This document shows, piece by piece, positions 15,329 through 32,689 of a stretch of 64,000 bases of DNA (within the stretch, counting starts at the first letter, position 1; each line of letters begins with the position of its first letter). The DNA is from an uncultured Lachnospiraceae bacterium (GTDB lineage: Bacteria; Bacillota; Clostridia; Lachnospirales; Lachnospiraceae): contig CAKRYR010000002.1 of NCBI GenBank assembly GCA_934432595.1, positions 71,387 through 135,386 of the forward strand, in the 5' to 3' direction. The notes beneath the pieces were generated by a model. It was given only the letters and a program-made list of their open reading frames with translations, was not told the origin of the DNA and ran no database searches. Made by a program: the position numbers and the translations under genes.

Positions 15329-16159
15329 TTATTGAATATTATATTCTTTATATAGCTTTTCTTTATATTGTTTATCAGAAGCAACACGACCAATATCTTC
15401 AAATCTATGTTCTCTATAAAGCAAGTTCATCAAAGTAGCTAATTTTTCCTCTCCTTCCACTCTACCTTTTATTCTGCCTCGTCTTTCTCCTTCTCTTCTG
15501 CTCTCTAATAGGTTCAATTCATACTTCATATATTTCACCCTCCAATCAGCATTTCTTCTTTTTATTCTTACCGCTTCATCTAGTTTCTTTGTATATTCAT
15601 CTGTTATTGTTTCCTCGTTAATATATTTTATCAAACTTGCAAGCTTCGGATTTAGATTTTCATCATCTAATGGAGCAGTAGTATTTACAAATACTTTAGT
15701 AGTAGCATCATTTAATACTAATTCTTTATCTTCCGTACATATATTTTTAAATGTGTATTTGAGGAAATCTTTTTTAAATACGTCAAATGTACAGATAAAT
15801 ATCACTATAGTATTTTTTAATGCATCATAATCCATTCCTGCCTGTAATTGATTTAAATCAATTGCACTTTGATAAAATCTTGATCTTTTTGGTAAGTTAG
15901 TGCTTTTACCTGCTTGCATTTCAACGTTATATACTGTATTTTCACTATCTTCAGTATATATGTCTAATCTAACACCTTTACCATCATAACTATCTTTCTT
16001 TGTATCTTGACCAGTTACGTATACTAGTTTCTTAATCTTAATATCTAGTATTCGTTCTAATAATTCTTTGCATAATTCCTTATCTGACATAACACTAAAG
16101 AACATAAAATCATCTTTTAATGTTATTTGGTCAAAATCTTTTGTAACTTCGTATTCCAT
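15329..16159 (-). mobile_element. Rpn-family recombination-promoting nuclease / PD-(D/E)XK putative transposase, left copy
   Basis: The N-terminal LKDDFMFFSVMSDKELCKELLERIL and LDIYTEDSENTVYNVEMQ (D...E.Q nuclease core) are typical of the PDDEXK_2/Rpn family. Near-identical to 31847-32689 in inverted orientation. Confidence 0.75.
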
Positions 16160-16409
16160 ACCCTTATCTTCCTTTCATTATAGCATATTAAACAAATGTT
16201 ATACAATATATCCATTATATAAATGCTATTCTGTGCAATAAATTTTTTTAAAAAGTATGAAAAATTTCTCATTCTAAATAGCAACTCATAGATAGAAATG
16301 AAAAACCCTTCACTAATAATACGGATTTGACCCCATCAAATGTTCCCGTTTTATAGAAAGTTTATGGAATTTTATAGAAATTTTATTTTCTGACTAAAGA
16401 TATAGCAAT

Positions 16410-16436
16410 AAGAGCAAGCCCATCGGACTTGCTCTT
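16410..16436 (-). terminator. terminator hairpin after surface-protein gene A (member of a repeated hairpin family)
   Basis: AAGAGCAAG...CTTGCTCTT stem. Related copies lie at about 15259-15285, 29236-29262 and 31570-31597, and differ mainly in the loop. Confidence 0.6.
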
Positions 16437-16485
16437 ATCTATATTATGATTAAATCATATTCAATTATTATCTATCGAATATCAA

Positions 16486-19400
16486 TTATTTTACTACAAC
16501 AGCCTTAGCTGATGAGAATGCTCCATAGTAAGTGTTTGAACCTACAGTCTTGTATGCTCTAACTTTGAACTTATATGTTGCTCCCTTAGCCAAACCAGTC
16601 TTAGTAAAGCTTGTAGAAGTAGTAGTCTTAACTTTTACATACTTACCATTACCTTTAGCCATGTAGATTTGATATCCTGTAGCTCTTGCTACTTTAGTAA
16701 ACTTAACTGTTGCTTTCTTACTTCCTGCAGTCACTGAAGGAGTTGCTACCTTAGCTGGTGCAGTAGTAGTCTTCTTAGTTGCGTATACTTTTGAGTATCC
16801 AGCAGTCTTAGCATAAGCTTTAACAGCAAATGTATAAGTAGTAGCTGAAGCTAATCCAGTTACATTCATGCTAGTAGCTGTAGTATTCTTGAATACCTTG
16901 TAGCTCTTAGCACCTGGTGCTTTATAGTATACTCTGTATGAAGTTGCTCCAGTAGCCTTAGTCCAGTTTAACTTAACTGAGCTTGCAGTTCTTGAAGTTC
17001 CTAACATCTTAACTTTACCAGGTACAATAACAACTTTTGCTACGTTTGATTCAGCTTGGTTGTAGTTAGTAGTTGCAATTGAAGTAGCTTTTACATAGTA
17101 TGTTCCAACTTTAGTTGGTACAGCTATCTCAGTTGTGCAATCTGCATCTGCATAATAAACATATGCTACAGGTGCACCTGCTTTGTTAGTTGTCTTAGGT
17201 TGAACTGATCCACCTAGTACAACTGTTTTATCTTCAACTTTTAATTCATTATCAGCTCTATCAATTAGGAAAGTAGCTGTTAATTTACCTTTTGTTTCAG
17301 TAACTTTTTCGAATTTACCTATGAAGTTAATTGTAGCTCTTGCAATACCTACGTTAATATTTTCATCGTAAGTTACAGTGTAGTCTACATCTTTAACAAG
17401 TGTAAAGTCTGGATTTAGACCATTTAAGTGTTCAACACTTACAACACCTTCAAGTTCTTCACCTGTATAAACTAAGTCCTTAGTTGTTACTTTATAATTA
17501 TCAGTAGCTTCACCTACTGATGTAGTAGACATAGTAGTAACTGAGTATTTAACAACTTTTGAATCATATTTATTATTCTTATCTGTTATTGTACAGTTAT
17601 ATGTTGGAGTTGTACCATCATATGTTATTGTAAATGTTGGATCAGTTGATAATGTTGTAGCACTTGATCCTTTTGTCCATTTATAAGTTACTTCTTCACC
17701 TTCTGCAACATCTACTTTAGGAGCAAAAGTATACTCTCTATCTTTAATTCCCTTTACAGCAAATGTATCATTTGTAGTTGCTACTAATTCTTTTCCGTTA
17801 GGACCATATACAGTAAATGGAACAACTTTATTAACTTTAATAGTTACTGTTCTTGTAGCAACACCATCTGTTACTTCACATACGAAGTAGTTTGCTTCGT
17901 TAACTTTATTTCCTTGAGTAGGATCTTCCTTCTTAACTTCAGGAATATAGATGTGATCATCTGCTAAAGTTCCTATTTTTACTACATTATTATCAATTGT
18001 AGCATTAATTGTACTGAAAGTTGTAACATCCGTTGCTGGTGTTGGATTATCGTCATCTAAATTAGTATCAGCATTTTTAACAAACTTCCAAGTATATGAT
18101 AATGGTAAAGAAGAAGTAGCATTAACTTTTAACTCAAGATCTTTTACTTGTAATTTGCTTGTTACATCAGTTGCAGATGCAGTTAAATCTGATACATATA
18201 TTACGTTCAATGTATGAATTGCTGTATCAGTTCCATTTGAAACTGTCCATTCATATTTACCAAAATCAGAATATGAAGCAGTATTTACTTTGTATGATTT
18301 AACAGTTGCGTCTGTTTTATCTACTAATGGAGAACCACCGTTTAATGTTAACTGACTGCTGTTAGTTGTGCCTTCAACTGTAGGTGCAGTCATCTCGAAT
18401 GAACCACCAACTTTAACAACCTTAACCTCTGAAGTTTTGATTGTTGAAGTATCATCTTTACCTAAAGTAAATGTTTCTGTAAATAATGCATCTGAACTAG
18501 ATCCTGCAGCAGCTGTATCAATTAAATCACATAATGCAGCATACTTAGTATTTGCTGAGGCATCAGCAACAGCGTCTAATTTTGTCTTAAATAATTCATT
18601 ATATTTTTCAACAGAAACGGCATAACATTTAACTGTAGTAATATTGTTTGATGTTTTGTCATTAATTGTAATGTTCTTATTAGTACCATCATAGCTCATT
18701 ACATCGTTTTCTGTAAGTAAAGTAGATATCTTTTTACCTACAACTTGCCATACATATCTGTAATCTGCATTTGAAGGAATACTAGTTGTTAATGATAACT
18801 TGTCATTTAATAATGTATCATCAGTATCTAATGCAACTACATCTGTATAAATATTAGTCATTTTATCCTTAACAGTAGATGCATTTGTTCCATCTAGTGT
18901 TAATGTAACATTTGCACTAACATCTCTAATTGTATCGTTTACTGTACATTTATATGTACCAAAATCAGCGTTAGTCAAATTAGTAAGTTCTATTCTATTA
19001 CTTGTGTATTGAGGTAATTTAGTACCGCCTCTTGTCCATGAATATGTAAGGTCTTTCTTTGTACTCTTAACAGTTACTTCAACCACAGCATTTCCACCAA
19101 CAATACCTTTAACTGTTGCTGGAGTTGCAGTTACAGTAGTATCTGATGCTTCGTATAAGTTTACTAAAGCATAATCAGTTGAATCTGTTGTTAAACCATT
19201 AGAATCCAATTTAACTGCTAAGTATAAACCTAAGTTAGCTGGAGTAACTTCTTCAAAGTATAACTTTGTATCGTCATTAGCTTTTTCAAAAGCATTTTCA
19301 GCAACTAATGTCCAATATTTTACTTTAGCAACCTCAGTCTTAGTAGTTGTTCCGTCTAAATAAGGAACTTCTACTGTAGTTTCAGAAGGTACTAATTTAT

Positions 19401-31164: not shown

Positions 31165-31210
31165 AAAAGTACAAAATATCGTACGTTTTTTCGTACTTTT
31201 ATTATACTAT
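31165..31210 (-). promoter_or_regulatory. antitoxin promoter/operator with three GTAC-core repeats
   Basis: On the minus strand: TATAAT (complement of 31202-31207), then AAAAGTACG, CGTACG and TTGTACTTTT. GTAC cores lie at 31169-31172, 31181-31184 and 31193-31196. GTAC-core palindromes are the known YefM-YoeB operator type in E. coli. Confidence 0.45.
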
Positions 31211-31432
31211 CTATATTATTTTTTGTCAATTAGATGCATAGATTCTGATAGTAACCTATTTTCTCTGTGACTTGATTTATAAATAAAAAAGTGTTAGCAT
31301 TTAAGTATAAAAAAGAGCACCCACTCCAAAAAGTGGATGGATATTTTTTATGTATAATACATTATTTTTCTTATTGAGATAAGAAAGAAATGCAATGATA
31401 AATAATCCCATTGATAGTGATAATGAAATAAT

Positions 31433-31519
31433 AAGTTCAAAGTTAGAGCATACAAGACTGTAGGTTCAAACACTTACTATGGAGCATTCTCATCAGCTAA
31501 GGCTGTTGTAGTAAAATAA
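31433..31519 (+). pseudogene. orphan 3' fragment of a surface-protein gene (last 28 codons plus stop)
   Basis: Encodes KFKVRAYKTVGSNTYYGAFSSAKAVVVK*, identical to the ends of proteins A and B. It is followed by the same 24-bp motif and terminator hairpin. Together with gene B's end, it forms roughly 168-bp direct repeats (29098-29265 and 31431-31599). Confidence 0.8.
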
Positions 31520-31846
31520 TTGATATTCGATAGATAATAATTGAATATGATTTAATCATAATATAGATAAGAGCAAGTCCACCAGGGCTTGCTCTTGTTG
31601 CTATATCTTTAGTCAGAAAATAAAATTTCTATAAAATTCTATAAACTTTTTATAAAACGGGAACATTTGATGGGGTCAAATCCGTATTATTAGTGAAGGG
31701 TTTTTCATTTCTATCTATGGGTTGCTATTTAGAATGAGAAATTTTTCATACTTTTAGAAAAAATTTATTAAAAAGAATAGCATTTATATAATGGATATAT
31801 TGTATAACATTTGTTTAATATGCTATAATGAAAGGAAGATAAGGGT

Positions 31847-32689
31847 ATGGAATACGAAGTTACAAAAGATTTTGACCAAATAACATTAAAAGATGATTTT
31901 ATGTTCTTTAGTGTTATGTCAGATAAGGAATTATGCAAAGAATTATTAGAACGAATACTAGATATTAAGATTAAGAAGCTTGTATATGTAGCTGGTCAAG
32001 ATACAAAGAAAGATAGTTATGATGGTAAAGGAGTTAGATTAGACATATATACTGAAGATAGTGAAAATACAGTATATAACGTTGAAATGCAAGCAGGTAA
32101 AAGTACTAACTTACCAAAAAGATCAAGATTTTATCAAAGTGCAATTGATTTAAATCAATTACATACAGGAATGGATTATGATGCATTAAAAAATACTATA
32201 GTGATATTTATATGTACATTTGACGTATTTAAAAAAGACTTCCTCAAATTTACATTTAAAAATATATGTATGGAAGATAAAGAATTAGCATTAAATGATG
32301 CTACTACTAAAGTTTTTGTAAATACTACTGCTACATTAGATGATGAAAATCTAAATCCTAAGTTAGTGAGTTTGATAGAATATATTAATTCAGAAACAAT
32401 AACAGATGAATATACTAAGAAACTAGATGAAGCGGTAAGAATAAAAAGAAGAAATGCTGATTGGAGGGTGAAATATATGAAGTATGAATTGAACCTATTG
32501 GAGAGAGAACGTGAAGGAGAAAAAAGAGGCGAAAAAATAGGAAAAAAAAGAGGCGAAAAAATAGGTGAAAAAAAATTAGCTACCTTAATGGATTTGCTTT
32601 ATAAAGAACATAGATTTGAAGATATTGGGCATGTTGCCTCTGATGAAGAATATAGACAAAAATTATATAAAGAATTTAATATTCAATAA
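31847..32689 (+). mobile_element. Rpn-family recombination-promoting nuclease / PD-(D/E)XK putative transposase, right copy
   Basis: Near-identical to 15329-16159 over the first roughly 215 aa and over the 250-bp upstream region. The C-terminal R/E/K-rich part differs and is 4 aa longer. Confidence 0.75.

Follow-up and report, generated by a model that had tools for sequence, protein, structure and literature searches.

The region from 15329 to 32689 of a 64,000-nucleotide stretch of an uncultured Lachnospiraceae bacterium (assembly GCA_934432595.1, contig CAKRYR010000002.1; the whole stretch is called the window here) is framed by two inverted, near-identical genes for Rpn-family nucleases, RpnL and RpnR. 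In an earlier note, made from the sequence alone, this block was likened to a composite transposon. We consider it probable, at about 0.7, that the Rpn frame is a by-product of two opposed cassettes, each a large surface-protein gene (SurfA or SurfB) plus an Rpn gene, set around native chromosomal genes and the gene of a tyrosine recombinase; the Rpn genes would be passengers, and rearrangement would take place at a 26-bp core sequence. The strain differences that carry this reading are demonstrable at their junctions: a 6.8-kb left cassette, containing the ATPase gene ATPase_L together with RpnL and SurfA, is gained or lost by site-specific recombination at the 26-bp core.

A 6.8-kb cassette bounded by 26-bp core sites

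The sites s1, s2 and s3 (Table 1) have the core TCTCTTTG(C) in common. In three contigs from three other samples (L005, L007 and L008), which are 99.4-99.9% identical to the window, position 13268 is joined straight to position 20061; the recombinase gene comes directly after orf293, and the 6.8 kb with ATPase_L, RpnL and SurfA are missing from that position. The junction is a hybrid of the a|d type, with an s1-type left side and an s2-type right side, and the switch from one to the other falls within the shared TCTCTTTGC. Because the 26-bp core is shorter than the word sizes used in assembly (31 for L005, a Logan contig, and 119 for L007), the L005 and L007 junctions are not misjoins induced by the repeat. 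The reciprocal b|c hybrid, which combines the leader-side half of s2 with the inner half of s1, was found in L021 and L022, two contigs of a lineage ~95% identical to the window; the order there is second Surf leader, site, ~110 nt, Rpn, the 150-bp repeat R, an intact YefM-YoeB pair, R again and Surf 3' end. With a|d present in three samples and b|c in two contigs, both products of an exchange between s1 and s2 exist in nature.

The exchange is probably catalyzed by the neighboring tyrosine recombinase, which has the catalytic residues R (GVRISE), HxxRH (HccRH), GH and Y (VYTH). None of the five informative contigs (L006, L007, L008, L009 and L013) showed the recombinase segment inverted between its oppositely oriented sites; all of them have the orientation of the window. 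The native genes of this segment are oriented as in the sister species, which is the ancestral arrangement.

Homologous exchange also shuffles the Surf genes, as is shown by a hybrid gene in L007 (7330-7830, compared with 25435-25822 and 19805-20081 of the window), which stands to the right of the recombinase segment. This gene has an upstream region of the SurfB type, including a 105-nt insert specific to B, followed by the coding body of SurfA; the crossover lies within a 68-nt leader stretch that is identical in both genes. A promoter scan returned 126 sites against 116 expected from shuffles in this DNA of 30% GC (guanine plus cytosine), that is, no excess over the shuffled sequences.

Two probable cassettes, opposed, around native chromosome

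Synteny with G001, the sole other species of the genus, places native chromosome at the center of the block, with Surf/Rpn units on both sides. The flanking genes of G001 are collinear with those of the window, and its locus reads orf293, two unrelated open reading frames (ORFs), unk448, unk147, SpoU, one unrelated ORF, C92 (amidase) and SbcDC, in the same orientation; between these flanks there is no recombinase, Surf, Rpn, ATPase, toxin-antitoxin, MACPF or HEPN gene. By its RpoB, the host belongs with uncultured Lachnospiraceae of low GC content (about 30%). In the window the order is orf293(-), ATPase_L(-), RpnL(-), SurfA(-), recombinase(+), unk448/unk147/SpoU/unk95(+), SurfB(+), ATPase_in(+), YefM(-) with a broken YoeB, RpnR(+) and MACPF. 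Profile searches recovered the gene content that had been read from the sequence, namely two Rpn genes, two secreted Ig/fn3 proteins of ~1150 amino acids (aa), the recombinase segment, an ATPase and a toxin-antitoxin remnant. SurfA consists of a signal peptide, a variable middle and a conserved C-terminal part of ~200 aa. The outer borders recur in independent metagenome contigs, in which RpnL adjoins ATPase_L and orf293 (L003 and L030) and RpnR adjoins the MACPF gene (L004 and L016).

When the window was compared with itself, repeats within the block were far above chance expectation. The inverted Rpn-unit arms proposed for its two ends are real: 15323-16574 aligns with 31431-32694 in inverse orientation over 1268 columns, at 93.5% identity. 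The arms contain a 150-bp perfect stretch (16425-16574 / 31431-31580). The nested inverted repeat of the Surf 3' ends is likewise present, with 91.7% identity, although it had been taken to be ~620 bp long and in fact extends over ~850 bp (16410-17259 versus 28410-29262); within it, 403 bp are identical throughout (16425-16827 = 28845-29247). The 2.2-kb ATPase/YefM insert stands between the copies of a direct repeat (29098-29265 = 31431-31599), and once this insert and one copy of R are subtracted, the arms form a single uninterrupted repeat of ~1.9 kb, which begins inside the Surf 3' end, includes the terminator and finishes at the Rpn stop codon. What is repeated is therefore not an Rpn element but the tail of a cassette that combines Surf and Rpn.

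Table 1. Features of the block and its borders (window positions).
Feature	Position	Strand	Basis or remark
s1, 26-bp core site (halves a|c), left edge of cassette X	13243-13268	+	direct repeat of s2
s2, core site (halves b|d), right edge of cassette X, 295 bp upstream of recombinase gene	20061-20086	+	contig junctions
s3, core site (halves b|e) upstream of SurfB, inverted relative to s2	25435-25460	-	sequence comparison
Tyrosine recombinase (Yrec), 357 aa	20382-21455	+	PF00589, E = 1.4e-20
SurfA, 1142-aa secreted Ig/fn3 protein	16486-19914	-	Pfam matches, signal peptide
SurfB, 1157-aa secreted Ig/fn3 protein	25713-29186	+	Pfam matches
Native backbone: unk448, unk147, SpoU methyltransferase	21808-24468	+	orthologues 34%, 48%, 81% in G001
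Outer inverted repeat, left arm: Rpn unit and last 89 nt of SurfA	15323-16574	-	93.5% to right arm
Outer inverted repeat, right arm: orphan Surf 3' end and Rpn unit	31431-32694	+	93.5% to left arm
R, 150-bp perfect repeat (Surf 3' end, motif, hairpin)	16425-16574	-	three copies; others 29098-29248, 31431-31581
Nested inverted-repeat arm, SurfA 3' end	16410-17259	-	403 bp identical to SurfB
Leader inverted-repeat arm: SurfA 5' untranslated region, signal-peptide codons, b half of core site	19805-20081	-	versus 25435-25822
Terminator hairpin 3' of SurfA	16407-16439	-	15-pair stem
Terminator hairpin 3' of RpnR	32699-32731	+	unrelated to hairpin 3' of RpnL
RpnL, 276 aa, Rpn-family PD-(D/E)XK nuclease	15329-16159	-	TIGR01784 105.2 bits, PF12784 67 bits
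RpnR, 280 aa, Rpn-family nuclease	31847-32689	+	TIGR01784 98.6 bits, PF12784 64.5 bits
Predicted internal RpnS frame of RpnL, 66 aa from M211, four G-x-x-x repeats	15329-15529	-	internal ATG and GGAGGG
Predicted internal RpnS frame of RpnR, 70 aa, five 4-residue repeats	32477-32689	+	internal ATG and GGAGGG
ATPase_L insertion (gene 13717-15057; AAA_14 and DUF4143; PADLOC candidate defence family PDC-S01)	13353-15298	-	Pfam; PADLOC, E = 9e-107
2.2-kb insert between direct R copies: ATPase_in (29454-30653, PDC-S01), YoeB remnant, YefM (30896-31150, minus)	29266-31430	+	profile matches

Arm identity is 100% over the 403 bp at the Surf 3' end, drops gradually to background in the middle of Surf, and also drops in the direction of the Rpn 3' end. 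Such a gradient is not what one old duplication would leave behind, and it points to gene conversion centered on the Surf tail. The window was further compared with the near-identical ERZ27287505 contigs, which otherwise match it at 100% over tens of kilobases; 10 differences were found, all of them in the arms (16591-16728 and 31867-31891), and at each of the 10 the base in the window is that of the opposite arm. These differences reflect either real conversion or the homogenization of repeats by an assembler.

We propose that a cassette would comprise a leader, a large secreted Ig/fn3 gene, the terminator region R and an Rpn gene, and that two such cassettes in opposite orientation would flank the native genes unk448, unk147 and SpoU together with the tyrosine recombinase gene, the right arm having been interrupted by the 2.2-kb ATPase/YefM insert. 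Homologous recombination or gene conversion centered on the Surf 3' end would keep the arms alike, and site-specific recombination at the 26-bp core, presumably by the neighboring recombinase, would add or remove the left cassette as a whole.

The suggestion in the earlier note that such long inverted repeats recombine with one another fits both the identity gradient and the conversion-like differences. A stronger form of this idea, in which the inverted arms of 1.3-1.9 kb would invert the ~15-kb interior through RecA appreciably often and both isomers would coexist, appears doubtful to us. It draws on the length and similarity of the repeats, with their perfect stretches of 150-403 bp, on the same differences between near-identical assemblies, on L007, in which the ATPase insert comes after a gene of the SurfA type, and on L003, which joins the ATPase/YefM insert to RpnL as would be expected of an inverted isomer or of an insert that had moved. 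The L003 join, however, crosses the perfect 150-bp R, which occurs three times and exceeds the 141-mer words with which the contig was built; the junction is not covered by any single word, the path may have been chosen by the assembler, and L003 was rejected as proof of an inverted isomer. Nor does any contig connect the unique body of a Surf gene with the opposite Rpn flank, and each arm has its own terminators, so that inversion would bring no obvious change of expression. GC skew was also considered as a clock of inversion and was rejected, as the skew tracks the coding strand.

Three perfect copies of the 150-bp R and a perfect inverted stretch of 403 bp are longer than short reads, the exact SurfA protein of the window had no record in an exact-sequence look-up, and the arms of the window are more homogenized than those of ERZ27287505. 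These observations would be expected if the repeat-rich arrangement had been made, wholly or partly, by the assembler. We regard this as improbable for the arrangement, since each Rpn copy, the outer flank peculiar to it and the SurfA-recombinase-SurfB core recur in independent contigs at 99.95-100% identity; where the 2.2-kb insert is placed in the window, and which Surf body is paired there with which Rpn copy, may nonetheless be arbitrary.

Rpn genes as probable passengers

Composite transposons of the Tn5/Tn10 type consist of two near-identical units that frame other genes, and the block is like them in that inverted, near-identical units stand at both of its ends. The Rpn family, moreover, carries the annotation 'putative transposase', and the Rpn unit is bracketed by a weak inverted match (18/21). 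That the Rpn genes act as flanking insertion sequences, and that the 17.4-kb block travels as a whole through the action of the Rpn nuclease, is nevertheless extremely improbable, and is already contradicted by synteny: the interior of the block is native, syntenic chromosome in G001. No target-site duplication was found outside the block ends, the longest word common to the two 40-nt outer flanks being 6 nt, at offsets -35 and +30. A count of Rpn genes in the 2.47-Mb genome gave only two, both in the block. At most a few bases separate the end of the arm homology from the Rpn stop codons; unrelated terminators follow, with no common outer end sequence. The flanking units contain no recognized transposase, matching only the Rpn families TIGR01784 and PF12784; the strain polymorphism is bounded by s1 and s2 rather than by the Rpn ends, and takes in ATPase_L, which lies outside the block; and in the L021/L022 lineage the Rpn gene is located between two Surf genes. 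The literature, too, offers no evidence of rpn transposition (PMC10400941). A tempting but wrong transposon label is removed in this way, and the locus becomes a natural case of 'Rpn transposase' genes spreading by hitch-hiking in duplicated regions, as has been proposed for E. coli.

Both Rpn proteins score well above the curated family cut-offs (52.1 bits for TIGR01784 and 27.4 bits for PF12784), and by this family assignment their genes are best read as passenger genes of a putative toxin-antitoxin, defence or addiction type, rather than as transposases. Rpn proteins have been described as toxic nucleases neutralized by RpnS, a small C-terminal protein made from an internal start, which contains four-residue repeats in variable number that begin 8-20 residues after its methionine (Zhong et al. 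2023, PMC10400941); in the same work rpn genes were without flanking inverted repeats or target-site duplications, multiplied by regional duplication and were considered unlikely to be transposases. In both genes of the window, codon 211 is an ATG preceded by GGAGGG 8 nt upstream, from which translation of an RpnS is predicted, and four-residue repeats begin 13 residues past M211 (GERR-GRIK-GRVE-GEEK in RpnL, GEKR-GEKI-GKKR-GEKI-GEKK in RpnR). Across strains the Rpn proteins are 264, 276, 280 and 284 aa long, all differences being multiples of 4. The decay of similarity that had been noticed within the 3' ends of the Rpn genes was borne out, with 22 of 210 codons differing in the N-terminal part and 31 of 66 in the RpnS part; it is accounted for by the hypervariable RpnS repeat region of the family, which sits there. 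PADLOC has no Rpn model, and the missing PADLOC match for Rpn is uninformative.

The surroundings of Rpn and of the recombinase in other genomes were also compared. Recombinase orthologues with 55-69% identity occur in six related genomes, none of them with an adjacent Rpn gene, and five of the six have no Rpn gene anywhere. The orthologue in G001 (67%) lies on another contig, beside large proteins, one of which has a Surf-like fn3 tail, with no Rpn near. A scan of genome contigs with the recombinase as query returned no close relative. Rpn homologues in other genera adjoin genes for transketolase, alcohol dehydrogenase, ClpB, a glycosyltransferase and a group II intron. At 34 metagenome loci from a JGI scan with RpnL, in which the homologues were only 38-46% identical, no homologue of other module genes was found within 10 kb. 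The earlier note had let its proposal depend on an association of Rpn with surface-protein genes; no such link was seen for the Rpn genes of the related genera or of these 34 loci, an outcome that the note itself had named as refuting.

A second tyrosine recombinase, 40% identical to the first, is encoded at G000:C1:34710-35759 (L037:9702-10772) among many ORFs of 220-340 aa. Its orthologues in G019, G004, G010 and G013 adjoin runs of four or five tandem ORFs of 250-320 aa, which could be further variable-protein loci. Inverted repeats were also looked for near the recombinase orthologues of G001 and G019 and near the paralogue of the window's genome, with no convincing result.

Exact matches to the 15-mer ATAATAATTGAATAT occur at four places in the 2.47-Mb genome, all within the module (16457-16471, 29201-29215, 30785-30799 and 31534-31548); they follow each Surf stop codon and mark the break in YoeB, and the three-copy repeat R accounts for three of them. 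A one-mismatch inverted copy at 15325-15339 overlaps the stop codon of RpnL. This confinement to the module is among the grounds for a functional coupling, in which Rpn would nick or cut near the 24-bp motif or the hairpin 3' of each Surf gene, thereby stimulating conversion or cassette exchange and diversifying the surface proteins. Surf is followed by Rpn at both places in the window and in L021, L022, L023, L026 and L027, the conversion hot zone abuts the Rpn unit, and E. coli Rpn proteins are reported to increase RecA-independent recombination (PMC5350276). We think such coupling highly unlikely, as there are recombinase-plus-Surf loci in relatives without Rpn, an AbiLi-like pair replaces Rpn in L020, more distant Rpn homologues lie beside unrelated genes, and a conserved C-terminal peptide partly dictates the match to the motif at the Rpn stop.

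Several observations weigh against our preferred reading of two opposed cassettes with passenger Rpn genes. The junctions all come from metagenome assemblies of different samples and not from one population, and they are compatible with gain of the left cassette as well as with its loss. The 10 conversion-like differences could stem from assemblers that homogenize repeats. The occurrence of Rpn after Surf in both window copies and in five contigs of the lineage makes a functional link possible. Lastly, the region of the Rpn stop (15322-15342) matches the motif after Surf (16454-16474) in inverse orientation at 18 of 21 positions, with p ~0.003 by shuffling, and could hint at an end like that of an insertion sequence. 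We give this match little weight: the inner copy of the motif also follows Surf copies that have no adjacent Rpn (29192-29215; L020), and the outer copy partly encodes a C-terminal peptide that is conserved in an Rpn homologue of 42% identity.

Defence-type neighbors and comparable systems

Both ATPases match PDC-S01 (PADLOC, E = 1e-107 and 1e-151), are only 22-23% identical to each other, and are separate insertions in the two cassettes (13353-15298 and 29266-30791). ATPase_L is a further insertion in the window, because its segment (13353-15298) is missing from the otherwise homologous stretch in L021 and L022. One PDC-S01 unit interrupts YoeB, which is broken in the window and intact in L020-L023, and the other adjoins the Rpn terminator, which suggests that single-gene PDC-S01 ATPase units are themselves mobile. 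In L020 (35-1970), from another sample, the place after R that is held by Rpn in the window is occupied by an AbiLi-like AAA_21 ATPase (PADLOC, E = 9e-81) with a HEPN_RiboL-PSP partner; YefM/YoeB and a HEPN protein gene are also among the defence-type neighbors. Defence modules seem to accumulate 3' of the Surf tail.

Integron and superintegron cassette arrays contain toxin-antitoxin genes as stabilizers, and the locus could be conceived as an integron-like capture platform, on which the recombinase would insert and excise multigene cassettes at the 26-bp site upstream of its own gene, the Rpn and YefM/YoeB addiction genes would stabilize them, and R would let defence modules hop. As in integrons, the recombination site lies directly upstream of the recombinase gene and divergent from it, a discrete cassette has hybrid sites with reciprocal junctions in nature, and genes of toxin-antitoxin type are carried in the cassettes. 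The recombinase, however, is not IntI (TIGR02249, 25.1 bits against a cut-off of 265), and the cassettes are 6.8 kb long and multigenic, with their own terminators and no attC-like folded sites identified. We consider the platform unlikely; if it existed, a cassette would be a giant surface protein plus an Rpn toxin-antitoxin pair, with or without a PDC-S01 ATPase, and strains would inherit and exchange surface variation and phage defence as a single package.

At the sap locus of Campylobacter fetus, conserved 5' ends and one promoter drive RecA-dependent switching. The arrangement is similar in that opposed surface-layer gene homologues with conserved ends flank a segment of ~5-6 kb and are reshuffled by homologous recombination; it differs in that the window has a tyrosine recombinase and core sites, and in that the largest homology is at the 3' ends.

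Among known systems, the nearest counterpart of the genes is the Rpn toxin-antitoxin family, and that of the locus either Vpma/Xer1 (PMC2268961) or integron-like cassette arrays. In the Vpma/Xer1 system of Mycoplasma agalactiae (PMC2268961, PMC5634654), as in the window, a tyrosine recombinase gene lies beside paralogous surface-protein genes with a conserved 5' leader in common, each of them preceded by a short recombination site. Unlike there, the genes here are only two and very large, the event observed is not an inversion but the presence or absence of a whole 6.8-kb cassette, gained or lost between direct sites, and Rpn and ATPase genes are part of the cassettes as well; any single expression site would be putative here. 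With the RpnL/RpnS systems of E. coli and other bacteria (YhgA-like; PMC5350276, PMC10400941) the window genes share matches to TIGR01784 and PF12784 above cut-off, an internal start with a Shine-Dalgarno sequence for a predicted C-terminal protein of 66-70 aa with variable four-residue repeats, the absence of target duplications and, apart from the weak 18/21 match, of flanking inverted repeats, an increase in copies by regional duplication, and defence-type neighbors. They differ in that the two copies are inverted and set downstream of paralogous surface-protein genes, and in Pfam class (PDDEXK_2 here, Transposase_31 for the E. coli Rpn proteins); toxicity, antitoxin action and phage defence are putative for the window genes.

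Under the preferred reading of two opposed cassettes, the real engine of variation at this locus in human-gut Lachnospiraceae would be the 26-bp site beside the tyrosine recombinase gene, with the 6.8-kb cassette present or absent according to strain. Both reciprocal junction types can be recovered from public metagenomes, and the cassette-wise exchange of surface proteins together with defence genes becomes directly testable in commensal Firmicutes.

Three smaller elements were observed in or near the block. Just upstream of ATPase_L (15067-15187) there are three tandem 33-nt units with ATATCACAAAATCGCA, which may be an operator-like array. The MACPF protein beside RpnR (33016-34878) has three paralogues, of 29-33% identity, clustered on genome contig C12. 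Just 3' of the recombinase gene lies an intergenic element of ~80 nt (21511-21610), copies of which, 82-92% identical, are found on at least 12 other contigs of the genome; a second copy in the window is located at about 55998-56055, and the element resembles a dispersed small repeat.

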